Source: a virus. Taken from it: 64,000 nucleotides of DNA. The stretch is from positions 34,392-98,391 of IMG/VR virus record IMGVR_UViG_3300044475_000063. One strand, 5' to 3'. Positions within the stretch are counted from its first letter, which is position 1. Each line of letters opens with the position of its first letter. A program made the translations under genes and the position numbers. Positions 2,580 through 61,201 of this stretch are shown in pieces. A model generated the notes under the pieces. It saw only the letters and a program-made list of their open reading frames with translations. It was not told where the DNA came from and did no database searches.

Positions 2580-2881
2580 CTACATTGCCTGATTGGATTC
2601 CTGCCGATGCGTGGGCCGGATACGTTGAAATGCGCAAGAAAAAGCGCGCCGTGATGACTGAGCGCGCTACCGAGCTACGCATTAAAGACCTTGCCAAGCT
2701 GCGCGATGCAGGGCAAGACGTAGGCGCGGTCTTAGATCAATCGACTGCGAACGGCTGGACTGATGTGTATCCGGTGAAAGAGCGCCGTGTCGAGCCGCGC
2801 AACCAGTTCGACACTTCGCGCCTTGGAAAGCACGGGCAGGCTACCGCAAATAACGCACTTGATTGGTTGGAGGGGAAATGA
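2576..2881 (+). CDS. hypothetical protein (101 aa)
   Basis: ATGA stop/start overlap with the upstream gene. Lies in the replication module. Confidence 0.5.
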   Translation: MTTLPDWIPADAWAGYVEMRKKKRAVMTERATELRIKDLAKLRDAGQDVGAVLDQSTANGWTDVYPVKERRVEPRNQFDTSRLGKHGQATANNALDWLEGK

Positions 2882-3042
2882 AATACATAATTATTTATAG
2901 CGATGGCTGTTACGAAAAAGCGGGTAGAGGAACTGGTTTTCCCACTACTGAAAAAGATGAGGCAAAAGTTTTTGATTCTGAAGATGATGCTCATGAATAT
3001 TGCGCGTGGTTGATAGAGGCAAAAGTTATTCCGTTGAAATAA
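2878..3042 (+). CDS. hypothetical small protein (54 aa, MKYIIIYSDG...)
   Basis: Not in the ORF track because it is under 60 aa. ATGA overlap with the upstream stop. It exactly fills the gap to 3044. Confidence 0.35.
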   Translation: MKYIIIYSDGCYEKAGRGTGFPTTEKDEAKVFDSEDDAHEYCAWLIEAKVIPLK

Positions 3043-3043
3043 T

Positions 3044-3676
3044 ATGATTGATAATCTAGAAGAAAAGCGCCGCTTCGCCTCGCTCATGACTGCCCTTGCT
3101 GACTATTACGAGAAGTCGCTTTCTAAAGGTGTCCTGTCTCTCTATTGGGAAGGGCTGCGCCAGTATGACTATGAGGCAATCGAAAAGGCCGCATGGGCGC
3201 ATACGCAACTACCAGACGAGGCGGGGCGCTGGATGCCCAAGGTCAGCGACCTAAACAAGATGCTGGCGGGGCGCACCTCTGACCAAGGGCAGAGTGCATG
3301 GAGCAAGGTTGATCGCGCCGTGCGCACCATTGGCCCTTATAGCGACGTTGCTTTTGACGATCCGATTATCCACCGAGTTATTCAGGAAATGGGCGGCTGG
3401 ATTCATCTTTGCGGACAAGACGAGAAACAATGGCCTTTCACAGCAAAAGAATTTGTTACGCGCTACCAGTCATACAAAATGACCGGTGATATTCCAGAAC
3501 ATGCGGGCTATTTGACAGGAATCGCCTCATCGCAAAATGAGCATTCAGGTAATAAACAAAAGCGCGAGATTCATTTAATAGGCGATAAACAAAAAGCAAT
3601 CGAATTAATCCTTGGCGAGAAAAAGAAAGTCGAATCGCTAGGTTTATCAGTTCCAAAAGCAGCAGACGCTATTTAA
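3044..3676 (+). CDS. replication-module protein (function unknown)
   Basis: Positional counterpart of 53557..54204, which follows the replication-initiator-like gene in unit 2; clear similarity is limited to the shared C-terminal VPKAADAI, which also ends 54201..54395. Confidence 0.5.
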   Translation: MIDNLEEKRRFASLMTALADYYEKSLSKGVLSLYWEGLRQYDYEAIEKAAWAHTQLPDEAGRWMPKVSDLNKMLAGRTSDQGQSAWSKVDRAVRTIGPYSDVAFDDPIIHRVIQEMGGWIHLCGQDEKQWPFTAKEFVTRYQSYKMTGDIPEHAGYLTGIASSQNEHSGNKQKREIHLIGDKQKAIELILGEKKKVESLGLSVPKAADAI

Positions 3677-5499: not shown

Positions 5500-6009
5500 C
5501 TATATTTCTATATCAGCCCAGCTTTTCCCAAGTTTTATCATGCTTACGGTCGAATGGTGAACATTGAAGAGTTTTCCTAGCTCTTTGTTCGACATTCTAA
5601 TCATAGAGGCTAGCTTTATATATCTAGCCTCTTCTTTGGTTAAGATTGATCTAGGATTCAACTCGCCAAAAATAGGTCGGCATGGCGATCTGCCTTTTGA
5701 AACCATATCATTTGAATTGTCTTGTGCAGTACCAAGAAAAAGATGATTTGGGTTGGTACAGATAGGGTTATCACATTTATGGCATACCATAAAATCACCC
5801 GGCTCTATACCAAAATGCAAAGCATAAGAAATTCTATGCGCGAATACAGATTGTCCGCGCTTGCCAACATGGGCAAGCCTCGCGTATCCCTTTTTGTCTA
5901 CGAAACCATTCCAAGACCAGCAATTGTCTTGCTTGACAACCTTTGACAGGTATCTCTGTTCTATTTTTGACAGAGGATCATTGATAAGAGGTAAAATAAG
6001 AATAGCCAT
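5500..6009 (-). CDS. HNH homing endonuclease (169 aa from MAILIL)
   Basis: The motif CHKCDNPICTNPNHLFLGTAQDNSNDM is an HNH core, and there is a C-terminal HTH-like module. Absent from the equivalent position in unit 2. Confidence 0.8.
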   Translation of the reverse strand: MAILILPLINDPLSKIEQRYLSKVVKQDNCWSWNGFVDKKGYARLAHVGKRGQSVFAHRISYALHFGIEPGDFMVCHKCDNPICTNPNHLFLGTAQDNSNDMVSKGRSPCRPIFGELNPRSILTKEEARYIKLASMIRMSNKELGKLFNVHHSTVSMIKLGKSWADIEI

Positions 6010-6102
6010 GAAGACTCCATGAAAGTCATTTGTGGTTAAAAGCCAACACGTGTGCAACCACTGTTGGCTTTGTCATTCTAACTCAGATACAATGAATTTG
6101 TC

Positions 6103-6178
6103 GCGGGGATAGCTCAGTTGGTAGAGTCTCTGATTTCCAATCAGATTGTCGTCGGTTCAAGCCCGATTCCCCGCTCCA
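6103..6178 (+). tRNA. tRNA-Gly (anticodon UCC), CCA encoded
   Basis: Manual cloverleaf: acceptor GCGGGGA/TCCCCGC, D stem GCTC/GAGT, anticodon stem TCTGA/TCAGA, loop TTTCCAA, T arm GTCGG-TTCAAGC-CCGAT, then T-CCA. Confidence 0.85.
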
Positions 6179-6695: not shown

Positions 6696-7118
6696 ATGGC
6701 ACTTACTCCAAAGCAAGCACTATTCGTCAAAGAATACCTAATCGACCTGAATGCAACTCAGGCCGCGATTCGTGCTGGTTATTCGGAAAAGACGGCTTAC
6801 TCTATTGGTGAAGAAAACCTGAAGAAGCCTGAAATTGCAGAGGCGATTGCCGAGCATCAACAGGCCAAGGCAAAGAAGCTAGATATCACTGTTGATACGA
6901 TACTTGCGGAGCTTGAGGAAGCGCGTCAATTGGCTCTAGAAACTGGTAAGGCTGGCCCAGCAGTTCAGGCTTCGATGGGTAAGGCAAAGATTTTAGGTTT
7001 GGAAAAGCAAGTCATCGATCATACATCTAGCGATGGCACTATGACGCCTAAAGCGCCTATCGTTGTTGACAAGGATACTGCTGCGCAGGTGGCGGCGAAT
7101 ATCAATGGTGGCATCTGA
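6696..7118 (+). CDS. terS: terminase small subunit
   Basis: The N-terminus LTPKQALFVKEYLIDLNATQAAIRAGYSEKTAYSIGEENLKKPEI is a classic Terminase_2/P27-type TerS signature. It lies directly upstream of TerL. Confidence 0.85.
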   Translation: MALTPKQALFVKEYLIDLNATQAAIRAGYSEKTAYSIGEENLKKPEIAEAIAEHQQAKAKKLDITVDTILAELEEARQLALETGKAGPAVQASMGKAKILGLEKQVIDHTSSDGTMTPKAPIVVDKDTAAQVAANINGGI

Positions 7119-8535
7119 CGACCCAGAGGTAATCAAGGCAGTAACTCGCGCACTATGCCTTGAGGATCACCTATTCTTTACTCGCTACTTCTTTAAGCTG
7201 CGCGAGGGGATTAAATTCCGCGTCAACTGGCACCATAAGCGCATGGCTGAGGCTATCCAGCGCGTGATTGATGGGCATTGCAAGCGGCTAATCATCAATG
7301 TGCCTCCTGGCTCGTCTAAGACGGAAATGGCGGTTATTAACCTGATTGCGCGTGGGCTTGCGATTAATCCTCGTGCGCGCTTCCTGCACCTATCGTACTC
7401 TGCTGACCTTGCCGAACTGAATAGCGCCAAGGCAAAGGAGCTAATCACGTCCAGCGAGTATCAAGAGTTATTCACGATCCCGATTAAGACCGACTCCAAG
7501 GCGCGGGGCCGCTGGAACGTGGTTGATGAAAAAGGCGTGTCTATCGGCGGATGCTATGCGACCTCGACGCTTGGTCAGGTAACTGGCTTTCGTGCCGGTC
7601 ACATGGCTGATGGGTTTCAGGGCGCGATCATCATCGATGATCCATTAAAGCCTGTAGACAGCCTATCAAAGACCAAGCGCGATGCAGTCAACAATGCCTT
7701 TATCAATACCGTGCAGAGCCGCAAGGCATCGCCTGATACTCCTATCATCGTCATCATGCAACGCCTCGCAGACGAGGATTTAACGGGCTTCCTGTTGAAT
7801 GGCGGCGACGGCAAAGAGTGGGAGCATGTTTGCATCCCAGCTATTGACGACGATTCCGGCAAGAGCTATTGGCCTGAGAAAGAGCCTATCGAATCGCTCT
7901 TGCAACTTAAGGAAAAGGGTAACTTCACCTTTGAGGGGCAGTACCAGCAGCGACCATATGTGCTAGGTGGTGAAATTATCAGGGGCGAATGGTTCGGGCG
8001 CTATAGCGAACTGCCGCCGCAGAAATGGTGTGTGCAGCGCGCCGTATTCGCTGATACAGCCATGAAAACAGGCGAGCAGAACGACTACACGGTATTTATT
8101 GATGCCGCGCTCTATACCGATGGCAAGGTACGTATCCTTAACCTATGGCGCAAGAAAGTGAATGCCGTGGGCCTTCTTCAATTAGCCAAAGAGGTTTGGG
8201 CCTCGACAGAAGGGCTAGCTAGCGCCATGTACATTGAAGACAAGGCATCTGGCACCGGCCTAATCCAGCAGCTACAGGAAAACGACGTATTTATCCCGGT
8301 TATCCCAATCGAGCGCACCAAAGACAAGCTAACCCGCGTCATGGAAGTGCAGCCAAGGATTCAGGCTGGCGGCGTTTTGCTGCCTACCTATGCGCCTTGG
8401 GTAACTGAGTTCATTAGCGAATGTGAGGCATTCACTGCAAACGATAGCCATAAACACGATGACCAAGTAGACCCGCTTGTAGATGCTGTAAATACGTTCA
8501 TGGCTAACAGTTTCAACCTATCAGCCTTGGTTTAG
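7105..8535 (+). CDS. terL: terminase large subunit
   Basis: Walker A-like PPGSSKT, Walker B-like AIIIDDP, and a C-terminal nuclease-type acidic motif. The ORF is open from 7063; the ATG at 7105 overlaps the terS stop. Confidence 0.85.
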   Translation: MVASDDPEVIKAVTRALCLEDHLFFTRYFFKLREGIKFRVNWHHKRMAEAIQRVIDGHCKRLIINVPPGSSKTEMAVINLIARGLAINPRARFLHLSYSADLAELNSAKAKELITSSEYQELFTIPIKTDSKARGRWNVVDEKGVSIGGCYATSTLGQVTGFRAGHMADGFQGAIIIDDPLKPVDSLSKTKRDAVNNAFINTVQSRKASPDTPIIVIMQRLADEDLTGFLLNGGDGKEWEHVCIPAIDDDSGKSYWPEKEPIESLLQLKEKGNFTFEGQYQQRPYVLGGEIIRGEWFGRYSELPPQKWCVQRAVFADTAMKTGEQNDYTVFIDAALYTDGKVRILNLWRKKVNAVGLLQLAKEVWASTEGLASAMYIEDKASGTGLIQQLQENDVFIPVIPIERTKDKLTRVMEVQPRIQAGGVLLPTYAPWVTEFISECEAFTANDSHKHDDQVDPLVDAVNTFMANSFNLSALV

Positions 8536-8546
8536 ATAAGAGAACA

Positions 8547-8572
8547 TAAATAAAAACCCGCCGAAGCGGGTT
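8547..8572 (-). terminator. intrinsic terminator of the reverse-strand two-gene insert
   Basis: Hairpin ACCCGC-TTCG-GCGGGT followed on the minus strand by TTTTTATTT. Confidence 0.6.
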
Positions 8573-8579
8573 GATTATG

Positions 8580-8954
8580 TTAGCCGTCGCCGGAGCCGTA
8601 GCCGTAGCCGGAGCCGTAGCCGTAGCCGGAGCCGGAGCCGTAGCCGTAGCCGGAGCCGGAGCCGTAGCTGTCGCCGGAGCCGTCGCCGTAGCCGGAGCCG
8701 TAGCCGGAGCCGTCGCCGGAGCCGGAGCCGTAGCCGTAGCCGGAGCCGGAGCCGTAGCTGTCGCCGGAGCCGTCGCCGTAGCCGGAGCCGTAGCCGGAGC
8801 CGTCGCCGGAGCCGTAGCCGGAGCCGTAGCCGGAGCCGGAGCCGTAGCTGTCGCCGGAGCCGTCGCCGGAGCCGTCGCCGGAGCCGTCGCCGGAGCCGTC
8901 GCCGGAGCCGTAGCCGTAGCCGGAGCCGTCAGTAAAAGTTTTATTGGTAGCCAT
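8580..8954 (-). CDS. poly(Gly-X) low-complexity protein (X = Ser/Tyr/Asp; 124 aa from MATNKTFTDG)
   Basis: AAGGA RBS 8 nt before the ATG. The start overlaps the stop of 8941..9315. A terminator lies immediately downstream. The 30-aa unit GDGSGYGSGYGDGSGDSYGSGSGYGYGSGS is repeated. Confidence 0.55.
   Translation of the reverse strand: MATNKTFTDGSGYGYGSGDGSGDGSGDGSGDGSGDSYGSGSGYGSGYGSGDGSGYGSGYGDGSGDSYGSGSGYGYGSGSGDGSGYGSGYGDGSGDSYGSGSGYGYGSGSGYGYGSGYGYGSGDG
8585..8935. repeat. in-frame tandem repeat, 6-nt period with a 90-bp higher-order unit
   Basis: GCCGTAGCTG recurs at 8661, 8751 and 8841, exactly 90 bp apart. The whole tract is GCC-GGA-GCC-GTA/GTC type. Confidence 0.9.
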
Positions 8955-9315
8955 CAATGCTGTCCTTTGCAGCTTGGGTAGCTGGGATCAGTTCGCAGAT
9001 GCCAGTCAGATAAATTTCTGGGTTGACCACATCGACTTTCCCGCCGTCTTTTTTAAGGCCGTGTTGAGCAACGCCCGATAGCGCAACGCCGTCTTTAGCT
9101 TTCCACGACCACAGGCGGCGCGAGTTTTTCAGAACTGCGGTATCGCCGTCAACGCTTACGACTTCGCCAGCATGCACACCAGCGGCATAGCAGCGTGCGA
9201 TTACGTACTTGCCAACGAATGGATGAGGTAATACGGCTTGATATACTTGAGCCGACGCGCCAAACAAGGCGGCAAGTTCTTTAGCTTGGCCGATGGTGAG
9301 TTCGTTAATGTTCAA
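8941..9315 (-). CDS. hypothetical protein (124 aa), partner of the repeat protein
   Basis: GGAGAAG RBS and an AT-rich promoter region at 9316..9450. Absent from unit 2. Confidence 0.65.
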   Translation of the reverse strand: MNINELTIGQAKELAALFGASAQVYQAVLPHPFVGKYVIARCYAAGVHAGEVVSVDGDTAVLKNSRRLWSWKAKDGVALSGVAQHGLKKDGGKVDVVNPEIYLTGICELIPATQAAKDSIDGYQ

Positions 9316-9450
9316 TTTACTTCTCCTATGGTTTTGCCTTTCGGCGTTGTGCTACGGATGACTAATGATAACTAAGGTTTCTCTATCTGTATATTTGAAA
9401 TAAACTATAAAATACTAGAGTAAAATAGAGAAATACTATGAGGGGTTAAG

Positions 9451-10806
9451 ATGGGCCGACCATTGGGAAGTAAGAACAAGCCGAAAGAGCCGCAGCAGAA
9501 TGTAGTTGTGACGGACGGGTACGCTGAGGCATTTACGGGAGCAGGAACAAATCGGGACCGTAGCAGCTACACGCGCATCGGGCGCACCGCCATGCTGCAA
9601 CAGATGGAATGTTCGCTACTGTACTTGGGTGATGGCTTTGCGCGCAAGATTGTGGACGTTCCAGCAGAGGAAATGACGCGCTCGGGCCTTGAGCTTGAGG
9701 ATTTAGAGGACGAGGAACTAGAGCAATTCGTCATGGCGCGTCTTGATGATCTGGACGCCATGCGGCACTTTAACGATGCGGTGGCGTGGTCTAGGTTGCA
9801 CGGCGGCGCTGTGATGATCTTCGGCCTGAATGATGGCGGCACGCTTGATGTGCCTCTTAATCCCGAAGGGATCAAGAGCGTTGAATTTCTCCGAGTCTAT
9901 GACCGCTGGCAAGCGACTATCCAGACCCGCGTGACCGATCCGAACAGCCCGGACTACGGCAAGCCGGACATCTGGCTCATTTCGCCGCTTGATGGTGCGC
10001 AACCGTACAAAGTGCATAACTCGCGCCTTTGGATGTTCGACGGCGACCGCATTCCAGACTTTGACCGCAATGCCAATCTCGGCTGGGGCGCATCGGCCCT
10101 GCAAGCCTGCCAAGATCAGCTTAAGCGCCTCGGCATGGGCCACCAATGGACGCTGGCGATTCTTGAGAGGGCGCAACAGGCAGTTCATAAGATTCCACGC
10201 CTCGGCCAAACGCTGCAATCCCCAGGCGGCGAAGCAATGGTACGCAAGCGCGTGGACGTTGTAGACATGGTGCGCGGCATCCTGAATACGATTGTTGTAG
10301 ACGGAGAAGAGGATTACCAAGTAACAACAGCTACGCTAACCGGCTATACGGACGTGCTAGACCGCTTTGCAGAGGCTTTGGCTGCTACTAGTGGCATCCC
10401 AGTATTTAAGCTGATGGAGCGCACGCAAGGGGGGTTGAGCAATACCGACAAGGGCGCTAGCGATGCTTGGTATGCTCGCATTGAGTCATGGTGGAATAAT
10501 CTGCTTCGTAAGCCTCAAGACTTGCTAATCCAGTACATCATGATTTCTAAGAACGGCGAAGCGCCAGATTACAAGCTGTGCATGGCCCCGCTGTCGGTAC
10601 TGAGCGCGACTGAGCAAGCAGAGGTTGATTTGAAGAAAGCACAGGCATTGCAGGCTCGTGCAGATGCAGCTATTAAATTCATGACTGGTGGTGTTCTTGC
10701 GGCGGATGATGTACGCCCTTCTATCGCGGAAGAATATGGTCTGAAAGAAGATAGCCAAGCGCCGGGGATTATTGAACCAGATGACGGCATGACAGAAAAT
10801 GGCTAA
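9451..10806 (+). CDS. portal protein
   Basis: 451 aa, immediately after the terminase region. About 90% identical to 59843..61201. Confidence 0.8.
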   Translation: MGRPLGSKNKPKEPQQNVVVTDGYAEAFTGAGTNRDRSSYTRIGRTAMLQQMECSLLYLGDGFARKIVDVPAEEMTRSGLELEDLEDEELEQFVMARLDDLDAMRHFNDAVAWSRLHGGAVMIFGLNDGGTLDVPLNPEGIKSVEFLRVYDRWQATIQTRVTDPNSPDYGKPDIWLISPLDGAQPYKVHNSRLWMFDGDRIPDFDRNANLGWGASALQACQDQLKRLGMGHQWTLAILERAQQAVHKIPRLGQTLQSPGGEAMVRKRVDVVDMVRGILNTIVVDGEEDYQVTTATLTGYTDVLDRFAEALAATSGIPVFKLMERTQGGLSNTDKGASDAWYARIESWWNNLLRKPQDLLIQYIMISKNGEAPDYKLCMAPLSVLSATEQAEVDLKKAQALQARADAAIKFMTGGVLAADDVRPSIAEEYGLKEDSQAPGIIEPDDGMTENG

Positions 10807-11812
10807 ACAATGGTTATATCCTCATGCTCAAGAGAGGCAACTTGATAAAGCGATGCAGGCTTATGCACGTCAGGTGATGGCTGACGTTGATGCTGTTATA
10901 GTATCCAACATGGGTTACTTCATGTCGAAGGCTAAGCTTGATGCTGAATCTAGCGAAGAACCAGAAGAACAGGAGTCCTGGAGTGAAGAGCTAGCACTTT
11001 TAGTGGCTATTCTTTTGACGCGATCTGCTAGCTATGATTTCTCAGCAATCTACACTGCTGGTAGAAACATTGCCGCATTTAATGATTATCAATTCAAATC
11101 AGTAATTAATTCTGTATTAAACGTTGTTCCGCGAATAGCAGAGCCTTTTTTAAACGGAATTCTTTCTGATTGGTATAAAAAAACCACGGATTTAGTTAAA
11201 GACAAAGCTTCTGAATACATAAAGTCAGTAGAGGCAATTATTAGAAATCAGTCGGCAATTGAATCAACTCAAAAAGCAGCAAAAGAAGTAATAGCAAAGA
11301 GAAAAGAAGTTTTCTCAGGCAAAATGACATTCACTGCTATTAATGAAACAGGGATGCTGAACTCAATGCTGCAACGTAGCCGCTTGATGGCAATTGGAGC
11401 GCTGTCGTACATCTGGACTACTCAACGGGACGAGCGAGTTAGGCCGCTTCACCAGCAAAGGCAAGGTAAGATGTTTTCATGGACTGTTCCTCCATCAGAT
11501 GGGCATCCAGGTATGCCGATTCGTTGCCGATGCATCGCTACGCCAGTAATTGATTTCGATTTTGAAGGACAATTCCCAACTGATCCAGCAAAAGTTTTTG
11601 AGCTTCGGCAATATCGACGTGGAGTTTCAGAAAATCAGCGCCTAGAAAGAAATAAAGATTATGGCGCAGCATTTAGAAGTGGGAAATTGACGCCCGGGGA
11701 AATTATTTCTCTTAACAGAGATAAGACCTCTGCACGATCTGTTGTAAACTCCTTATTGACAAGCGGGCGACTCACCCAATCCCAACTAAACAATCTCTAC
11801 AAGGATTTGTGA
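10799..11812 (+). CDS. head morphogenesis protein (SPP1 gp7 / Mu F family)
   Basis: Signature RDERVRPLH...GHPGMPIRCRCI, located after the portal gene. Confidence 0.85.
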   Translation: MAKQWLYPHAQERQLDKAMQAYARQVMADVDAVIVSNMGYFMSKAKLDAESSEEPEEQESWSEELALLVAILLTRSASYDFSAIYTAGRNIAAFNDYQFKSVINSVLNVVPRIAEPFLNGILSDWYKKTTDLVKDKASEYIKSVEAIIRNQSAIESTQKAAKEVIAKRKEVFSGKMTFTAINETGMLNSMLQRSRLMAIGALSYIWTTQRDERVRPLHQQRQGKMFSWTVPPSDGHPGMPIRCRCIATPVIDFDFEGQFPTDPAKVFELRQYRRGVSENQRLERNKDYGAAFRSGKLTPGEIISLNRDKTSARSVVNSLLTSGRLTQSQLNNLYKDL

Positions 11813-34220: not shown

Positions 34221-34708
34221 TTTCTATCATCGCCCAATACAAGCGATGGTTTGAGATAGGCACTATTGCGCTGGTGATTATTGGCGCATTGTGGGGCTTT
34301 CATGCTTTCTCGGAAAGGCAGCGCGAGATAGGCAGAAACGAGATTCGCTTAGAATGGCGTGAGGCCGAAGTTAAGCGCATAGAGGCTGAAAACAAACTAT
34401 TGGCCGTACAAAATGCGGCTCGTGATATAGCAAACAAAGAAGGACAAGAACGTGAAAAAGCTATCAATAATGCTTTTGCCGCTAACAGCGCTGCTCTTGT
34501 CAGCCTGCGCGGCACAATCTCAAACCAGCAGGCCCAGCTTGCCACCGCCAATATCGAAACCCTCCGTCGATATTCCAGCACAGCCAGCGCCGTATTTGCA
34601 GAATGCGCAGCAGAATATAGCGAAATGGCAAAAGAAGCTGCAAGAGGCTATAACGCCGCCAGAACGCTAGATCAAGCTTGGCCTACTTCTCCTGCCGAAG
34701 CAAAATAG
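34217..34708 (+). CDS. Rz: i-spanin (Rz-like)
   Basis: N-terminal TM segment, coiled-coil periplasmic domain, and an embedded lipoprotein ORF. Confidence 0.75.
   Translation: MISIIAQYKRWFEIGTIALVIIGALWGFHAFSERQREIGRNEIRLEWREAEVKRIEAENKLLAVQNAARDIANKEGQEREKAINNAFAANSAALVSLRGTISNQQAQLATANIETLRRYSSTASAVFAECAAEYSEMAKEAARGYNAARTLDQAWPTSPAEAK
34452..34670 (+). CDS. Rz1: o-spanin (Rz1-like lipoprotein), fully embedded in Rz in another frame
   Basis: Signal peptide with lipobox LLSAC and a Pro-rich mature region. Confidence 0.7.
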   Translation: MKKLSIMLLPLTALLLSACAAQSQTSRPSLPPPISKPSVDIPAQPAPYLQNAQQNIAKWQKKLQEAITPPER

Positions 34709-43316: not shown

Positions 43317-43966
43317 TAGGCTTCTCCATGTTCTTCGTAAATTTGCTCAACACGGCGGCGCAGGTAGGCTTGCGCAACCTTCACTTTTGCGATCATTTTT
43401 GCTTCGATTTCTGCATCGCGCTTGATCGTGGCGCGGGTTACTCGTAAAGCTGGGTCGATATGGTCAACTTCGTGCAGCGATGCTTGCTCCCACTTGCGTA
43501 GTTCTTCGGGAGTGCTTACCATCGTATAGGCTACCTCGCCTTCGTCTACATCGTAAAGAGCCATGTAAGACCACAGTTGATAGTCATAGCCTGATTTCTT
43601 TGCGATGGCTAGAACTTCCTCGCTGGTGGCGGGGAACGTCGCTAGTGACCATGCGTTTTTAATGTCGATAACTTTGGTCTTTGGAACCAAGATATCGCAC
43701 TCACCAGTTACCCATTCATTCGTTAAGCGAACCGTGTTTTTCTCATGGCGCGACAGCGTGACCATGTTGTAAAGGTCAATTGCTGCCTGTTCGCACTCAA
43801 TGCCCTTTTTTAAATACTTGGTGTCGATTTCCTCGCGGAAGCCGTAGACGTATTCCTTGGCAATGCCGTTCAGGAAGGTTTTAGCGCCGACACTTAGGCC
43901 ATCAGCGCCTTTGCCATCAGCCATCAACTCAGCAATCGAAGAAGCGCGGAAAGTGATATCGATCAT
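43316..43966 (-). CDS. PD-(D/E)XK nuclease (YqaJ/exonuclease-like)
   Basis: The motif GECDIL...KVIDIKN fits D...(D/E)xK. ATGA overlap with the erf stop. The ORF is open to 44029. Confidence 0.6.
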   Translation of the reverse strand: MIDITFRASSIAELMADGKGADGLSVGAKTFLNGIAKEYVYGFREEIDTKYLKKGIECEQAAIDLYNMVTLSRHEKNTVRLTNEWVTGECDILVPKTKVIDIKNAWSLATFPATSEEVLAIAKKSGYDYQLWSYMALYDVDEGEVAYTMVSTPEELRKWEQASLHEVDHIDPALRVTRATIKRDAEIEAKMIAKVKVAQAYLRRRVEQIYEEHGEA

Positions 43967-44709
43967 TTCTGCACCTCTTTTTGCGCCGCGATCATAGCCA
44001 ATTCCTGATCTGCATTCAGGGTGTACCACGCCTTAATTTCCTCAATTGTGTATTCTCCAGCCTTAACCGACTTCATCGCGTTTTCAAACTTCTTAGCGCT
44101 CATGATCGGCAGCGCCTTGGTTTTGGCTTGCTCGGCTTGACTTGCGCCGTTGCCGTCGTCATCGCTGTTTGCATCGGTCGAAGCGAGGCCGCAAACGGAT
44201 TCGTAAGTAACCGCCTTGGCATAGGTGATTGCGCTCTTAATCTTCTGAATCTCGTTTTTTGCACCAGTTCCATCTGGCGGCACAACGAACGGCACAGATT
44301 CAGAGTGGCCCAGCGAATGCGACAGAATGCACGTTACCTTAATCATGCTGCCGTTTTGCTCGATCTGCCAATCAGCCGACAAGCCGTGCTTACTCAGATA
44401 AGGCGCTACAGTGTTGACCACGTTGCCAAGCGACGAATACCACGACTTGAACTGAGTATTGTATTTATCCTTGATGATCTTGATTGCCTCGCCTTTGAAA
44501 GCAGCCTTAGCAGCAGTGAAAGCCTTGCGCGCTTCATTGGCATCGTGACGCTCTTTCAAGGCCATCATGCGCTCGATAGTGTCGATATTGCCGCTTTGCA
44601 GGGCAACCATCAGCATGTTGTCAGGCGTCGCCGACAATGCCGTCTGAGGCTGCGCTACAGGCAAAGCTTGCGCCCGCTGGTCATCGACCAACTGAATTTC
44701 TTGGTTCAT
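43963..44709 (-). CDS. erf: single-strand annealing protein, ERF family
   Basis: The segment KDKYNTQFKSWYSSLGNVVNTVAPYLSKHGLSADWQIEQNG..IKVTCILSHSLGHSE matches the ERF core pattern. Confidence 0.7.
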   Translation of the reverse strand: MNQEIQLVDDQRAQALPVAQPQTALSATPDNMLMVALQSGNIDTIERMMALKERHDANEARKAFTAAKAAFKGEAIKIIKDKYNTQFKSWYSSLGNVVNTVAPYLSKHGLSADWQIEQNGSMIKVTCILSHSLGHSESVPFVVPPDGTGAKNEIQKIKSAITYAKAVTYESVCGLASTDANSDDDGNGASQAEQAKTKALPIMSAKKFENAMKSVKAGEYTIEEIKAWYTLNADQELAMIAAQKEVQK

Positions 44710-45916: not shown

Positions 45917-46180
45917 ATGACCGACATTGAGCAACCCAAGGAAGCAAAGAAGTACCCGAACGACACCAGCGGCAACCTGTTCGACTACATCAAGCGTAAG
46001 TTTGACCTTACTACAGACGAAGCGCTGGCTCAGAAAACCGGCCTATGGAAGAACGACATCAGCCGCATCCGCAACGGCAAGCGCAAAGGCCTGACCAATA
46101 GCAACAAGCTGAAAATCCACGTATCAACCAAGCTGTCGATAGCAAAGATTGAGCGGCTTATTGCGAAGGAGGAAGAATGA
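45917..46180 (+). CDS. HTH transcriptional regulator (Cro-like position)
   Basis: The segment TTDEALAQKTGLWKNDISRIRNGKRKG looks like an HTH. First gene of the rightward operon. Confidence 0.6.
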   Translation: MTDIEQPKEAKKYPNDTSGNLFDYIKRKFDLTTDEALAQKTGLWKNDISRIRNGKRKGLTNSNKLKIHVSTKLSIAKIERLIAKEEE

Positions 46181-46413
46181 GCGACGTTATGTTTTACGGC
46201 GTGTTGCGCATGCCCTACGAAATGGCGATGGATGGCGAGATTAGCCGCTGGCAGTTCTGGCAGCGCGCACAGGAGGCCGTAGAACGAGTTGCGAAAGCTG
46301 AGGCCCGAGTAGCTGAATTGTCAGCCGCAATCGACAAACTAGCCGCTTGCAAAGGCCGCTATCACACAGAAGCTAATTTTAAGGAACTGCTTGCAGTTCG
46401 GGAGGGGAAATAA
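46177..46413 (+). CDS. hypothetical protein (78 aa)
   Basis: Overlapping stop/start. Confidence 0.5.
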   Translation: MSDVMFYGVLRMPYEMAMDGEISRWQFWQRAQEAVERVAKAEARVAELSAAIDKLAACKGRYHTEANFKELLAVREGK

Positions 46414-47638: not shown

Positions 47639-47823
47639 TGCGATTTGAGAGCGATAAGATTGGCTTATACCGCCAAGCCACAGCAACGCGCAGCCCCGGC
47701 CCGAATAGCACCTTTTTCTGCTGCCGCTGCGCTAAACCAAAACAGATCGTAGGACGCAAAAAAGTCGGCCAGAACGGGCGGCAGGCTTTGTATGCTTGTG
47801 TGTCTTGTCAGGAGGTGAAATGA
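47638..47823 (+). CDS. small zinc-ribbon-like protein (61 aa)
   Basis: CCRC...CVSC cysteine pairs. Confidence 0.45.
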   Translation: MRFESDKIGLYRQATATRSPGPNSTFFCCRCAKPKQIVGRKKVGQNGRQALYACVSCQEVK

Positions 47824-48524
47824 AGCCGGTAATTATTAGTGATGCTGAACTGTGGCTGGGCGATTGTGCAGAAATTTTGCCGTTGATTGGTAAGGTGGAT
47901 GCTGTTATTACTGACCCACCATATGGTATTGGGGAGCGTAAAGGGACAATTTCCAAGGCCAGAAACCGCAATAATTATGAAAATTTTGATGATACTCCAG
48001 AAGCAATAAAAAATGAGATAGTCCCACGTTTTGAGCTTGCGCTCTCATTGGCTAATAGAGCAATTATGACTCCGGGAGGAAAGTGCTTTTCGATGTATCC
48101 GGCCCCTGTTGATATCGGCATGTCTTTTCAACCTGCAACATCGTCAATGACGCATTGGGGCCGCGCCACTTGCCAGCCAATTTTTTATTATGGGAAAGAC
48201 CCGATGGCAGGGAAAACCATTAAGCCAATTCACTATCAGCTAACCGAAGCTCCGGAAAAAAATGGCCATCCATGTCCTAAGCCAATTGGATTTATGATGT
48301 GGATGGTTGATAGAGGATCATTAAATGGCGAAGTAATTTTAGACCCATTCATGGGAAGTGGCACAACTGGAGTGGCATGTGTTCAACTTGGACGAAAGTT
48401 TATTGGCATTGAGCGCGATGAACGATATTTTGAAATTGCTTGCCAGCGCATCGAGCGTGCCGTATCTCAAGGCCAGCTTTTTGCGCCAGCGCCTGTTAAA
48501 CAAATACAGGAGCCTATGTTTTGA
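47820..48524 (+). CDS. orphan DNA methyltransferase (N6-A/N4-C type, DPPY)
   Basis: Motif IV is TDPPYGI and motif I is ILDPFMGSGTTGVACVQLGRKFIGIE. No adjacent restriction gene. Confidence 0.85.
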   Translation: MKPVIISDAELWLGDCAEILPLIGKVDAVITDPPYGIGERKGTISKARNRNNYENFDDTPEAIKNEIVPRFELALSLANRAIMTPGGKCFSMYPAPVDIGMSFQPATSSMTHWGRATCQPIFYYGKDPMAGKTIKPIHYQLTEAPEKNGHPCPKPIGFMMWMVDRGSLNGEVILDPFMGSGTTGVACVQLGRKFIGIERDERYFEIACQRIERAVSQGQLFAPAPVKQIQEPMF

Positions 48525-58364: not shown

Positions 58365-59794
58365 GCGCTATTGAGATTTTCCCGGCGTATGAGGAATATC
58401 TGCAGCCGGCTCGCTTCAAGGTTGCATACGGCGGGCGCGGATCGGCTAAAACGCGCACATTCGTAACCATTCTTCTAAGCAACGTCCTGCATTTTGGCTG
58501 GCGAGTTGTTGCTTTTAGGGAGTTAATGGAAAGCATCGAGGACTCAGTTTATCAAGAAGTGGTTGCAGAGATTACGCGCCGCGAGTGGGATAAATGGTTT
58601 GACGTGCTTAAGACAGAGATTCGCTGTCCTGTCAGCGGTGGTGTATTCAAGTTCTCAGGCATTAAATCGAGCGCTAAGCGCCTCAACAGCCAAAAGCTTA
58701 AGGGTTTCTCAGACTTTGATGCCGCATGGCTGGAGGAGGCCAATCCTGTGTCTGTCGAGTCATGGAATGCGCTCATTCCTACCATGCGTAAGCCGGGTTC
58801 AGAAATTTTCGTATCCTTTAACCCGGAAAACCCACTTGAGGAAACCTATAAGCGGTTTGTGACTGAGCGCAAATACCCTGATTACTTGGGTGGAAAGCGC
58901 TATTGCATAGTCAAAAAGCTGAATTACGATGCAAACCCGCGATTCCCTCAAGAGTTGCGCGACGACATGGAGTTAATGAAGGCGACGGACTTTGAAATGT
59001 ACCGTCACGTCTATTTGGGTGAGCCTGTGAGCAATTCTGACTTGTCGATCATCAAGCCGATATGGATTGAAGCGGCAATGGATGCGCACCTGCACATTGC
59101 GGACTTCCCTATGGGAGGCGGCAAGATCGGCGGATTTGACGTATCTGGAGGCGTTGAGGGGGATATTGCAACACCCAAGGCAAACGATCCAAACGCCTTT
59201 GCATGGCGTCATGGCTGCATCCTGCAATCGCTTGAGGAATGGCATGACGAAGACCCTAATCGCGCCGCTGCGACGTGTTATGAGCATGCATATCGCTCTC
59301 AAGTGGACACGCTCAATATTGACGATATTGGCGTTGGTGCCTCTGTTCCTGGCGAACTAAGGCGCTTGCAGGGCGAAGCCTATGCAAAGAGCGTTAAGAT
59401 CAAGCAGATCAATTTCCACGGCTGGACAGCATCCGAAGGACCGCAAGACCCTGATGCAGAGTACATGCCGGGTAAAACGAACTTTGATATGTTCGCCAAC
59501 CTCAAGGCGCAGGGATGGGGAACGCTGGCAGATCGCTTTAGGGCAACTTGGCAAGCGCGTAACGGTCTGCCATACGACAAAGACAAGCTAATCAGCCTGC
59601 CTAGTGGTTTGTCTCTTGTTGACAAGCTTAAGGCAGAACTAGCCCAGCCGCGACGCGAGATTATCAATGGACGATTCAAGGTAGAAGGCAAGAAAAAGCT
59701 CAAAGAGCGCGGCATCCCATCGCACAACTTGGCCGATGCGGTTGTTATGGCATTTGCGCCGGGTGATAGCTTTGATCTATCAGCACTGATATGA
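58361..59794 (+). CDS. terL: terminase large subunit (different family from the unit-1 TerL)
   Basis: Walker A is YGGRGSAKT and Walker B-like is DAAWLEEA. Lies directly upstream of the portal gene. Confidence 0.85.
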   Translation: MSAIEIFPAYEEYLQPARFKVAYGGRGSAKTRTFVTILLSNVLHFGWRVVAFRELMESIEDSVYQEVVAEITRREWDKWFDVLKTEIRCPVSGGVFKFSGIKSSAKRLNSQKLKGFSDFDAAWLEEANPVSVESWNALIPTMRKPGSEIFVSFNPENPLEETYKRFVTERKYPDYLGGKRYCIVKKLNYDANPRFPQELRDDMELMKATDFEMYRHVYLGEPVSNSDLSIIKPIWIEAAMDAHLHIADFPMGGGKIGGFDVSGGVEGDIATPKANDPNAFAWRHGCILQSLEEWHDEDPNRAAATCYEHAYRSQVDTLNIDDIGVGASVPGELRRLQGEAYAKSVKIKQINFHGWTASEGPQDPDAEYMPGKTNFDMFANLKAQGWGTLADRFRATWQARNGLPYDKDKLISLPSGLSLVDKLKAELAQPRREIINGRFKVEGKKKLKERGIPSHNLADAVVMAFAPGDSFDLSALI

Positions 59795-59842: not shown

Positions 59843-61201
59843 ATGGCACGAACTAAAGGCGCACTCGGCAAAAAGACATTGGAGCGAATGCAGCAAGGCG
59901 GAGGTGTAACTGTAACAGACTCATATGCTGAGGTCTTTACGGGCGCAGGGACAAATCGGGACCGTAGCAGCTACACGCGCATTGCCCGCACCGCCATGCT
60001 GCAACAGATGGAATGCTCTCTGCTGTACTTGGGCGACGGCTTTGCGCGCAAGATTGTGGACGTGCCAGCAGAGGAAATGACGCGCTCCGGGCTTGAGCTT
60101 GAGGATTTGGAGGACGAGGAACTAGAGCAGTTCGTCATGGCGCGGCTTGATGATCTGGACGCCATGCGGCACTTTAATGATGCTGTGGCGTGGTCTAGGC
60201 TGCATGGCGGCGCGGTGATGATCTTCGGCCTGAATGATGGAGGCACGCTTGACGTTCCGCTTAATCCAGATGGAATCAAGAGCGTTGAATTCCTCCGAGT
60301 TTATGACCGCTGGCAAGCGACTATCCAGACCCGCGTGACCGATCCGAGCAGCCCGGACTATGGAAAGCCTGATATTTGGCTCATTTCTCCGCTCGATGGT
60401 GCGCAACCGTACAAAGTGCATAACTCGCGCCTTTGGATGTTTGACGGCGACCGCATTCCCGATTTTGACCGCAATGCTAATCAAGGCTGGGGTGCATCGG
60501 CGCTACAAGCTTGCCAAGATCAGCTTAAGCGCCTCGGAATGGGCCATCAATGGACGCTGGCTATCCTTGAGCGTGCGCAACAGGCTGTGCATAAGATTCC
60601 GAATCTCGCGCAGACATTGCAAGCGCCAGGAGGTGAAGCACTGGTACGCAAGCGCGTTGACGTCGTTGACATGGTGCGTGGCATCCTGAATACCATCGTT
60701 GTAGACGAAAAGGAAGCATACGAAGTCACCACGGCCACGCTAACGGGCTATACGGACGTGCTAGACCGATTTGCGGAGGCACTGGCGGCTGTATCGGGCA
60801 TTCCAGTGTCCATCCTCATGGGGCGCTCGCAGGGAGGCTTAAGCAATACCGAAAAAGGCACCATGGATGCTTGGTACGCTCGTATCGAATCGATGTGGAA
60901 TGACATTCTGCGCAAGCCGCAAGATCGCCTGATTCAGTACATCATGATTGCGCAACAAGGCGAAGCGCCGGACTATAAGCTGTGCATGAAGCCTTTGAGC
61001 GTTCTCAGTGAGCAGGAAGAAGCCGATGTGGAACTGAAAGAGGCGCAAACTTGCAAAGCCCGCGCAGAGGCTGAGAGCATCCGAATTGCTGATGGCGTAC
61101 TCGATCCGCTGGAAGTGCGCGAAACGCTCAAGGATGATTATCCTCTGTTCTCCACGCCACCAGAGCCGCCAGAAGCACCAGAGGTAACTAATGGCATCTA
61201 A
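59843..61201 (+). CDS. portal protein
   Basis: About 90% identical to 9451..10806. Confidence 0.8.
   Translation: MARTKGALGKKTLERMQQGGGVTVTDSYAEVFTGAGTNRDRSSYTRIARTAMLQQMECSLLYLGDGFARKIVDVPAEEMTRSGLELEDLEDEELEQFVMARLDDLDAMRHFNDAVAWSRLHGGAVMIFGLNDGGTLDVPLNPDGIKSVEFLRVYDRWQATIQTRVTDPSSPDYGKPDIWLISPLDGAQPYKVHNSRLWMFDGDRIPDFDRNANQGWGASALQACQDQLKRLGMGHQWTLAILERAQQAVHKIPNLAQTLQAPGGEALVRKRVDVVDMVRGILNTIVVDEKEAYEVTTATLTGYTDVLDRFAEALAAVSGIPVSILMGRSQGGLSNTEKGTMDAWYARIESMWNDILRKPQDRLIQYIMIAQQGEAPDYKLCMKPLSVLSEQEEADVELKEAQTCKARAEAESIRIADGVLDPLEVRETLKDDYPLFSTPPEPPEAPEVTNGI

Follow-up and report, generated by a model that had tools for sequence, protein, structure and literature searches.

A conserved phage gene pair of a DUF6948 protein with a predicted Sm-like fold and a poly(Gly-X) protein of variable length

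The locus between terL and portal

We analyzed a 64,000-nt stretch of viral DNA (the window; positions 34,392 to 98,391 of IMG/VR record IMGVR_UViG_3300044475_000063), in which two units, unit 1 and unit 2, each carry a large terminase gene (terL) followed by a portal gene. In unit 1 a gap of 915 nt separates terL from portal and contains two overlapping minus-strand genes with an AT-rich upstream region and a terminator-like hairpin (Table 1), whereas in unit 2 only 48 nt lie between the terL stop at 59794 and the portal start at 59843. The original prediction had described these features from the sequence alone, and its observation is confirmed in all coordinates and features. Its description of the segment as an insert relative to unit 2 is only loosely true, however, as the two portal proteins are 84% identical but the two terL proteins are unrelated (Terminase_6C in unit 1 against Terminase_3 in unit 2). 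The segment therefore sits at a mosaic joint and not in an otherwise identical backbone.

Table 1. Features of the terL-portal segment of unit 1 and its flanks (positions in the window)
Feature	Position	Strand	Description
terL (flank)	7063..8535	+	Large terminase of unit 1 (Terminase_6C, phrog_38)
Terminator-like hairpin	8555..8572	-	7 bp, 5 GC pairs, 4-nt loop, just after the G-X stop codon; good T-run on the minus strand (TTTTATTTATG), poor one on the plus strand (GATTATGTTA), so that late transcripts from terL can probably read through
G-X gene	8580..8954	-	124 aa from ATG 8954; leader MATNKTFTDG, then 57 dipeptide units; TAA stop
Shine-Dalgarno-like site of the G-X gene	8963..8968	-	AAAGGA, 8 nt upstream of ATG 8954, within the Lys-Asp codons of the DUF6948 C-terminus; translational coupling signal as inferred from sequence
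DUF6948 gene	8941..9315	-	124 aa, TTG start; overlaps the G-X gene by 14 nt
Shine-Dalgarno site of the DUF6948 gene	9323..9327	-	AGGAG, 7 nt upstream of the TTG start
Upstream region	9316..9450	-	32.6% GC; right end also carries the ribosome-binding site of the plus-strand portal gene
Sigma-70-like site	9393-9365	-	TATACA-17-TATCAT, the one such site in the upstream region
Portal (flank)	9451..10806	+	Phage_portal_3; 84% identical to the unit 2 portal from about residue 18 onward

The downstream gene could also start from a TTG at 8957, giving 125 aa and an overlap of 17 nt, but the ATG is the likelier start because relatives place their ATG there. Its product consists of 55 Gly, 29 Ser, 19 Tyr and 13 Asp with a single Lys, no Cys and no hydrophobic N-terminus, and has a net charge of about -12. 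Gly occupies 54 of the 57 Gly-register positions and alternates with Ser (26), Tyr (19) or Asp (12), while the three exceptions are Ser encoded by AGC, one base from GGC. The self-identity of the DNA peaks at a lag of 90 nt (0.913 against about 0.83 at other lags), confirming the predicted 30-aa higher-order unit, present about three times, and Tandem Repeats Finder reported periods of 12 and 18 with a score of 435. The codon usage is monotone, with every Gly encoded by GGC, Ser by TCC in 26 of 29 cases, Tyr always by TAC and Asp always by GAC, although TCC is rare in the neighbouring genes.

Family and predicted fold of the two proteins

The upstream protein, in which the original prediction recognized no motif, is a clear member of the Pfam family DUF6948 (PF22253, E = 8e-26), scoring 90.5 bits against a cut-off of 27 with residues 35-120 matching model positions 1-85 of 85. 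An AlphaFold2 model (pLDDT 86.7) shows an N-terminal helix (residues 8-24), a strongly bent five-stranded sheet (37-111) with one short helix (79-85), and a C-terminal helix (114-121). All top 50 Foldseek hits in the PDB are Sm/LSm proteins, namely SmD3/SmB, Lsm1-7/2-8 or archaeal SmAP, but this resemblance is fold-level only and borderline, with E = 1e-3 to 1e-2 and TM-scores of 0.47-0.69 normalised to the target and about 0.4 normalised to the query. At the sequence level no relationship was found: there is no Pfam LSM or Hfq hit and no Sm1/Sm2 motif, hhalign gives a probability of 1.5% against Hfq and 0.7% against SmAP, and phmmer against the PDB returned only ribosomal protein S17 at E = 1.4. 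DUF6948 also has extra N- and C-terminal helices.

The G-X protein is probably disordered, which rests on the G-X tract of a relative being modelled with pLDDT < 50. No family was found for either protein in NCBIfam or, at E <= 1, in PADLOC-DB v2, and PHROGs gave only a weak, unnamed hit for DUF6948 (phrog_18306, E = 0.0036) and nothing for the G-X protein. An Rfam search of the segment found no RNA family. Near-identical DNA was not found in GenBank phages or E. coli genomes, a 99%-identical protein (P0001) has no contig on record, and a scan of species-representative genomes found only three relatives, all in metagenome-assembled genomes.

Conservation of the gene pair

To see whether the two genes belong together, we collected DUF6948 homologues, of which there are at least 1797; the family forms at least 1288 clusters at 50% identity. 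Nearly all of the 150 listed are stand-alone proteins of 79-171 aa and two are longer (216 and 240 aa). Of 83 DUF6948 loci 80 have a G-X ORF downstream, the other three contigs ending within 40 nt, and 79 of the 80 ORFs are in the +1 frame with the ribosome-binding site and start codon inside the 3' end of the DUF6948 gene, as in the window. In the junction sequences of 81 loci, which were compared in register and not by a formal alignment, an AAGGAG motif (Lys-Glu) plus ATG is embedded in the conserved C-terminus ...AKESIxGY(K/Q)*, at the position where the window has AAAGGA. The reverse search agrees, as 92 of 97 loci found by the repeat DNA alone, with upstream DNA available, have DUF6948 upstream on the same strand, 90 of them adjacent and two at 0.3 and 0.9 kb. 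The pair is also present in isolated phages, namely Ralstonia NK-7, seven Pectobacterium phages, Iodobacter phiPLPE, Vibrio IKEMa6-1 and Chlorobiaceae CV-1-33, as well as in gut phages. Thus, the pair is not specific to unit 1, as had been predicted, but occurs in hundreds of phage contigs.

Two outcomes that would have spoken against the minus-strand reading had been named beforehand, namely repeat lengths varying out of frame and expression of the plus-strand Ala-Val-Gly frame, and in both respects the comparison came out in favour of coding. In other phage lineages the tract is the N-terminal arm of a longer protein, fused in frame to a conserved globular C-terminal domain, and at least 4858 proteins carry it fused to one such domain. 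In 174 of these proteins the tract ranges from 8 to 102 residues and its length is even in 172, that is, it varies nearly always by whole dipeptides. Loci differ by synonymous C/T changes at third positions while the composition stays G > S > Y > D, and the plus-strand frame would not keep its composition in relatives that use TCT, TAT and GAT codons. The fused C-terminal domains A and B match no Pfam, PHROG, PADLOC or PDB sequence, and domain A, which models confidently, has no fold match in the PDB, so that they give no functional clue.

Concerning the genomic context, the neighbours are usually early recombination or replication genes. The recurring families, each found in 5-10 loci, are SSB, YqaJ, AAA_24, Sipho_Gp157, DUF669, RecT and NinB, and individual loci show RecE/Bet, Erf, and PDDEXK plus SMC-like genes. 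No single neighbour is conserved, however, and as the largest neighbour cluster covers only 10 of 172 loci, guilt by association is weak. Of 112 loci with both neighbours called, 58 have the pair in the same direction as both neighbours and only 14 show the antisense-island arrangement seen in the window, among the further examples of an antisense position being Pectobacterium phage Koroua with the pair between tail genes.

Possible function and alternative readings

The interpretation given in the original prediction is partly supported. The G-X frame is a real gene coupled to its upstream partner, the copy in the window has, as judged from sequence alone, the anatomy of an autonomous antisense moron, with a promoter-like region, ribosome-binding sites and a terminator between two late genes, as in lambdoid phage morons, and the comparison with Gly/Ser/Tyr low-complexity domains is reasonable. 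The silk and microcin analogies of the prediction fail on their defining features. "Moron" describes the placement of this copy and not the function of the cassette. We regard it as shown, with high confidence and on comparative sequence evidence, that the segment is one copy of a conserved, portable two-gene phage cassette, whose gene products are probably made together from one mRNA and whose repeat number changes quickly but in whole dipeptide units. In the window it has been captured as an apparently self-contained antisense unit at the recombination joint between a swapped terminase module and portal. How it works is only inferred, and our explanation as a whole remains tentative, the mechanism even more so. 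The two proteins would form a cytoplasmic complex early in infection, in which the Sm-like partner provides an oligomeric core binding nucleic acid or peptide, and the G-X chain a flexible, multivalent arm with Tyr as sticky contacts and Asp as negative charge. This arm could drive self-association or compete with RNA or single-stranded DNA for basic binding surfaces, and the net effect would be to modulate RNA or ssDNA transactions of the phage or its host. Oligomerization, nucleic-acid binding and interaction of the two proteins are all part of this inference, and the tract, being acidic and lacking Arg and Lys, argues against direct RNA binding of the RGG type.

A precedent is Hfq of Acinetobacter baumannii, which combines an Sm core with a glycine- and aromatic-rich tail of GGFGGQ units (PMC11617691), although there core and tail are one polypeptide and the hexapeptide repeat has no acidic residues, whereas here a phage encodes two coupled genes and a strict, strongly acidic dipeptide repeat. 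FUS-type [G/S]Y[G/S] low-complexity domains and glycine-rich RNA-binding proteins of plants and cyanobacteria also have Tyr flanked by Gly or Ser in a disordered, glycine-rich chain and usually accompany an RNA-binding fold. All 19 Tyr of the G-X protein are in G-Y-G or S-Y-G contexts, but the tract has no Gln or Arg, alternates strictly, is far shorter, and is bacterial and viral. It could also be possible, although we consider it unlikely, that an Sm-like ring protein and a separately encoded, hypervariable low-complexity protein assemble into a condensate-like or nucleic-acid-mimicking complex that reorganizes RNA or ssDNA metabolism or sequesters a host factor early in infection. This would be a previously unrecognized, widespread phage system and a viral, prokaryotic counterpart of the LSm-plus-low-complexity scaffolds of eukaryotic RNP granules, with repeat number tuning its behaviour and, in some lineages, the same arm delivering novel globular effector domains.

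The literature searches on DUF6948, PF22253, fibroin-like phage proteins, the peptide motifs and dipeptide repeats in phages returned no paper mentioning the family or its link to a downstream poly(Gly-X) gene, and the only relevant find was the repeat table of the phiPLPE study (PMC3391216). Both genes are common but unstudied, in phages of several bacterial phyla and in human-gut samples, and the G-X gene is often left unannotated, mislabelled or read as non-coding repeat DNA. A strictly coupled pair of a folded and a low-complexity protein, with repeat lengths varying among near-identical phages, offers a testable entry point into what disordered dipeptide-repeat proteins do in bacterial viruses, and cultured models suited to knock-outs exist with Koroua and its relatives, NK-7 and phiPLPE.

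Among the alternatives, an anti-defence or host-takeover decoy overlaps with our explanation but is more doubtful. Here the acidic, Tyr-studded chain would mimic single-stranded nucleic acid or another host substrate and soak up a host defence or repair protein, with DUF6948 as its chaperone or presenter. Carboxylates on alternate residues, the position in early accessory regions next to recombination genes, where anti-defence genes cluster, a rapid length variation that would fit an arms race, and the modular layout of one arm with different C-terminal domains in different lineages would agree with this. If the function turned out to be anti-defence or host takeover, it would add a mechanistically new class. 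However, no similarity to any known anti-defence protein was seen, known DNA mimics are folded and not disordered, there is no evidence for a target, and the PADLOC library searched covers defence systems only. Unlikely is the originally preferred role in defence, superinfection exclusion or as a toxin-antitoxin moron expressed from the prophage, for which the antisense placement with its own promoter-like region and terminator speaks, as well as the fourteen other loci with this arrangement and Koroua. No PADLOC, toxin or antitoxin family was matched, most copies run in the same direction as early lytic-cycle genes, and a strict 1:1 coupled pair with a hypervariable disordered member does not resemble known toxin-antitoxin pairs. 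As the pair occurs in phiPLPE, which is described as lytic (PMC3391216), lysogenic conversion is also unlikely to be its general role.

Very unlikely is a function at the DNA level with an incidental ORF, although this is the published reading for phiPLPE. Table 3 of PMC3391216 lists 46,046-46,255 as a '(KMGCCG)35' GC-rich repeat, treated as non-coding and speculated to be a novel att site, and these coordinates are the repeat part of the unannotated G-X ORF downstream of gp84, a DUF6948 protein. The monotone codons, the third positions that are nearly all C or all T within most loci, and the many contigs breaking at the array, which tends to break metagenome assemblies, might point in this direction. 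Against it stand the conserved ribosome-binding site and ATG in the right frame in about 80 loci, the amino-acid composition kept across arrays of C-ending and T-ending codons, the whole-dipeptide lengths, the in-frame fusions to conserved, well-folding domains and the varying array position among genomes. A remote possibility is a secreted glycine-rich bacteriocin or microcin with an immunity protein, or a silk- or amyloid-like extracellular or virion structural protein. Depositors have named relatives 'fibroin heavy chain-like protein' (NK-7) and 'colicin E3', but these names are low-complexity artefacts. In contrast to the (GAGAGS/GAGAGY)n repeats of silk fibroin heavy chain, with which it shares Gly at every second position and some Ser and Tyr, the protein has no Ala-rich crystalline motif, its only Ala being in the leader, is 10% Asp and not secreted, and has 124 aa instead of thousands, so that the resemblance is compositional only. 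The features of class II microcins and colicin-like bacteriocins are also missing, as the leader is hydrophilic without signal peptide or double-glycine motif, the protein has no hydrophobic segment and is strongly acidic, the cassette has no exporter or membrane immunity protein, the partner is modelled as a small beta-barrel with flanking helices and matched no membrane-protein family, and the genes usually lie in early, non-structural regions.

We also considered a programmed frameshift fusing DUF6948 to the G-X tract, as the +1 relationship is conserved. However, every locus has its own ATG, GTG or TTG with a ribosome-binding site, other lineages use an ATGA overlap or a 4-nt gap, and no fused protein appears among the 150 representatives listed, P0202 (one protein record) looking like a gene-calling read-through. 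Third-position codon choice was compared with background GC3 as a test for drift and showed no correlation (rho = 0.19), which, with most arrays being nearly all C or all T, points to concerted evolution of the repeat array instead and explains the monotone codons. A link to the phage tRNA-Gly(UCC) at 6103-6178 was dropped, as this tRNA reads GGA and GGG whereas the gene uses only GGC, and unit 2 carries the same tRNA without the cassette.

The two-gene segment between terL and portal

To take a closer look at the segment between terL and portal we first compared the two phage-like units that lie in tandem in the window. Their terL and portal genes are separated by 915 nt in unit 1 and by 48 nt in unit 2, and the 915 nt hold two minus-strand ORFs. 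The original observation of a two-gene minus-strand segment at this position was confirmed, including its coordinates. All features are listed below.

Coordinates and signals of the features in the window and in related phage loci
Sequence	Feature	Position	Strand	Details
window	Unit 1 against unit 2	1-34000 against 35000-64000		two phage-like units in tandem
window	Rha/KilAC antirepressor	1881-2579
window	ORF with HNH-like motif	5500-6057	-	motif CHKCDNPICTNPNHL...
window	tRNA-Gly(UCC), unit 1	6103-6178
window	Small-terminase-like ORF	6696-7118
window	terL, unit 1	7063-8535	+	Terminase_6C
window	GC-rich hairpin	8555-8572		good T-run only on the minus strand
window	Poly(Gly-X) ORF	8580-8954	-	ATG start, eight bases after AAAGGA; overlaps the DUF6948 ORF by 14 nt
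window	DUF6948 ORF	8941-9315	-	TTG start, seven bases after AGGAG
window	Region upstream of the DUF6948 ORF	9316-9450		32.6% GC; one sigma-70-like site on the minus strand
window	Portal, unit 1	9451-10806	+
window	Early region of unit 2	about 35-45 kb	-
window	ERF recombinase	43963-44709		within the early region of unit 2
window	DNA methylase	47796-48524
window	tRNA-Arg(UCU), tRNA-Gly(UCC) and tRNA-Ile with an unusual AAT anticodon, unit 2	55986-56061; 56070-56143; 57584-57661
window	terL, unit 2	58361-59794		Terminase_3
window	Portal, unit 2	59843-61201
L088	G-X tract fused to domain A	9826-10536
L108	G-X tract fused to domain A	9890-10816	-
L212	G-X tract fused to domain A	9001-9660
L150	G-X tract fused to domain B	7805-8530	-
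L216	Two tandem G-X-type ORFs	about 2764-3060; about 3126-3524

The downstream protein has a 10-residue hydrophilic leader followed by 57 dipeptide units, in which Gly occupies 54 of the 57 Gly-register positions and the three exceptions are Ser encoded by AGC, one base from GGC. The other position is Ser in 26, Tyr in 19 and Asp in 12 cases. There is no Cys and one Lys, and the net charge is about -12. DNA self-identity peaks at a lag of 90 nt, confirming the 30-residue higher-order unit of the original prediction, and Tandem Repeats Finder scores the array at 435. The window holds only one DUF6948 gene and only one extended poly(Gly-X) ORF (109 residues in G-X runs), while one other ORF has a single 16-residue run. 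No Rfam family matches the segment.

The two portals are 84% identical from about residue 18 onward, but the two terL proteins are unrelated, as they belong to different Pfam families and show no similarity in BLASTP. A metagenomic relative of the portal (locus L207, 86% identity) has the arrangement of unit 2. The gene pair therefore lies where a different terminase module has been joined to a shared portal and head module, and is not an insertion into an otherwise collinear backbone. The ORF with the HNH-like motif, identified by this motif alone, lies just upstream of the tRNA and the small-terminase-like ORF, and HNH endonucleases are often found next to terminase genes. The tRNA-Gly(UCC) reads GGA and GGG and not the GGC used throughout the G-X gene, so we see no link between this tRNA and the cassette. 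Most large ORFs in the 35–43 kb block have no Pfam match.

DUF6948 and its pairing with the poly(Gly-X) ORF

The upstream partner matches Pfam DUF6948 (PF22253) with E = 8e-26. The family is large, as one search found at least 1797 homologues and a full HMMER scan found 1288 clusters at 50% identity. Nearly all of the 150 listed are stand-alone proteins of 79–171 aa and two are longer (216 and 240 aa). Two DUF6948 proteins in public collections are odd: P0202 (164 aa) runs from DUF6948 into the Leu-Arg-Pro frame of the repeat, which looks like a gene-calling or frameshift artefact, and P0165 (240 aa) joins a truncated DUF6948 to what looks like an outer-membrane beta-barrel segment and may be chimeric. 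Using a 44-sequence alignment, AlphaFold2 gave a model with pLDDT 86.7, consisting of a helix, a strongly bent five-stranded sheet with one short helix, and a final helix. In a Foldseek search of the PDB all top 50 hits are Sm/LSm proteins (SmD3/SmB, Lsm1-7/2-8 and archaeal SmAP), although with E-values of only 1e-3 to 1e-2 and TM-scores normalised to the target of 0.47–0.69. In the viral structure library the only named matches at E <= 1e-3 are other DUF6948 proteins, and sequence profiles show no relationship to Hfq or SmAP (hhalign probability about 1%). We therefore call the protein Sm-like by predicted fold only.

In order to find out whether the two genes belong together we examined 83 loci encoding DUF6948 relatives, 80 of them IMG/VR contigs and 3 isolated phages. 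Of these, 80 have a poly(Gly-X) ORF directly downstream and the other three contigs end within 40 nt of the DUF6948 match. In 79 of the 80 the G-X ORF is in the +1 frame relative to DUF6948. The junction is conserved: the DUF6948 C-terminus reads ...AKESIxGY(K/Q) before the stop codon, its Lys-Glu codons spell AAGGAG, and 6–8 nt further on an ATG in the +1 frame opens the G-X ORF, which is the classic layout for translational coupling. For the reverse test we scanned IMG/VR for the DNA motif GGCTCYGGCTAYGGCGAYGGCTCYGGC and recovered 120 loci, of which 97 had usable upstream DNA. From these 97 loci 92 have a DUF6948 ORF upstream on the same strand, 90 being adjacent and two lying 0.3 and 0.9 kb away. 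Many metagenomic contigs end inside or just after the G-X array (among others the IMG/VR loci L005, L007, L018, L022, L028, L034, L038, L041, L043, L055 and L056). The repeat seems to break short-read assemblies, so the cassette is probably under-counted and its lengths under-estimated in public data.

The pair is also kept in isolated and more distant phages, namely Ralstonia phage NK-7, where the G-X gene is annotated as 'fibroin heavy chain-like protein', Pectobacterium phages Koroua, Ymer, Abuela, Amona, Taid, Pappous and Sabo, Iodobacter phage phiPLPE, where the ORF is unannotated, Vibrio phage IKEMa6-1, Chlorobiaceae phage CV-1-33, a spring-water podovirus (MW202898, locus L216) and a human-gut phage scaffold. 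In the spring-water podovirus two G-X-type ORFs follow the DUF6948 gene in tandem, both with a more degenerate composition including His, Arg and Phe among the X residues. One partial, distant DUF6948-like hit (L218) lacks the partner.

Evidence for coding and codon pattern of the G-X tract

Four independent lines support coding on this strand and in this frame. As described, the ribosome-binding site and start codon are conserved. The composition is conserved as G > S > Y > D in two very different lineages, while the codons differ between loci at synonymous third positions (TCC/TCT, TAC/TAT, GAC/GAT), and in the antisense in-phase frame those changes would turn Gly into Arg and Val into Ile. 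Among 174 proteins that share a closely related C-terminal domain the tract is 8–102 residues long and 172 of the lengths are even, showing that the repeat number changes fast but in whole dipeptides. Near-identical phages differ by in-frame indels of 12 and 16 residues (locus pairs L069/L070 and L061/L064). Finally, in about 47 of the 203 loci examined the tract is the N-terminal arm of a longer protein with a conserved globular C-terminal domain that is read in the same frame.

Two families of such C-terminal domains were found. Domain A (about 150 aa, at least 4858 members) carries the motifs FAHGETL and WHHxLTGSCxxGR and occurs in many phages in proteins of 180–260 aa (for example in L088, L108 and L212, and in proteins P0271–P0446), where the accompanying DUF6948 protein is a shorter 96-aa form. 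It models confidently (pLDDT about 90), while its G-X segment scores below 50, meaning disordered. Domain B (about 115 aa) with the motifs FWRSxxxGxPSNGG and GPLxLCxxGTLHAT is fused after the G-X tract in other phages (L150, L164, L165, L141, L144 and L171). Neither domain matches Pfam, PHROGs or PDB sequences, and domain A also matched nothing significant in PADLOC and has no PDB fold match. The gene of the window is the minimal form, with the arm and no C-terminal domain.

In the window every Gly is GGC, 26 of 29 Ser are TCC, and all Tyr and Asp codons end in C, although TCC is among the rarest Ser codons in terL, portal and DUF6948. Pooled over the 81 loci used for the comparison of the junctions, GGC makes up 88% of the Gly codons and TCY 92% of the Ser codons. 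Third positions are nearly all C or all T within most loci and do not follow the background GC3 (rho = 0.19), a pattern that fits concerted evolution of a repeat array. Ser (TCY), Tyr (TAY) and Asp (GAY) are neighbours by single-base changes, but other equally reachable residues (Cys, His, Val, Pro, Thr) are rare, so the composition is under selection.

Genomic setting and possible role

Both neighbours could be called in 112 loci. In 58 of them the pair runs in the same direction as both neighbours, in 27 it heads a same-direction gene run after a divergent neighbour, in 13 it ends such a run, and in 14 it forms an antisense island as in the window. The recurring neighbour clusters are SSB, YqaJ exonuclease, two AAA_24 families, Sipho_Gp157, DUF669, RecT and NinB, and at least 47 of 172 loci have one of them within 3.5 kb. 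Individual loci add detail, as one pair is divergent from an HTH_3 gene (L208), one heads an operon with PDDEXK and SMC-like genes (L209), one lies near RecE/Bet (phiPLPE), one near Erf, SSB and ExoVIII (Koroua), and one in the early or middle region of an SPP1-like siphovirus (L212/L213). phiPLPE is described as lytic (PMC3391216). The cassette is therefore usually an early lytic-cycle gene pair, and its moron-like placement at a terL/portal joint in the window is a secondary capture.

The interpretation given in the original prediction is partly supported: the gene pair is real and this copy is moron-like, but the pair is a widespread conserved cassette, usually early and co-directional with its neighbours, and the proposed analogies to silk and microcins fail. 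The system matches no characterised family or mechanism. It is abundant, has cultured model phages and is directly testable. What our analysis establishes is a coupled gene pair with conserved composition, a hypervariable arm modelled as disordered in a relative, a partner with a predicted Sm-like fold and an early nucleic-acid-metabolism neighbourhood, whereas it is only an inference that the two products act together in the cytoplasm. In this view the barrel protein would be an oligomeric binding core, and the acidic, Tyr-rich arm would be a multivalent element that self-associates or that competes with RNA or ssDNA for basic surfaces. Hfq from A. baumannii, which combines an Sm core with a glycine-rich tail of GGFGGQ repeats (PMC11617691), is a precedent for this kind of pairing within one polypeptide. 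We regard this mechanism as tentative. It could also be possible that the pair serves as an anti-defence decoy, which we consider only slightly less likely, whereas a defence, exclusion or toxin-antitoxin moron appears more doubtful. A DNA-level repeat element is improbable, and a secreted or structural glycine-rich protein is the least likely of these readings.

No paper in the literature searched mentions DUF6948 or PF22253. The only trace is Table 3 of PMC3391216, which lists phiPLPE 46,046-46,255 as a 210-bp '(KMGCCG)35' GC-rich repeat and speculates that it is a novel attachment site. These coordinates are the repeat portion of the G-X ORF downstream of gp84, which is a DUF6948 protein. 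The reverse complement of KMGCCG is CGGCKM, which is the repeating unit GGC-KMC read one base out of register, and KMC can spell TCC, TAC, GAC or GCC. On the comparative evidence we reinterpret this repeat as a translated gene.
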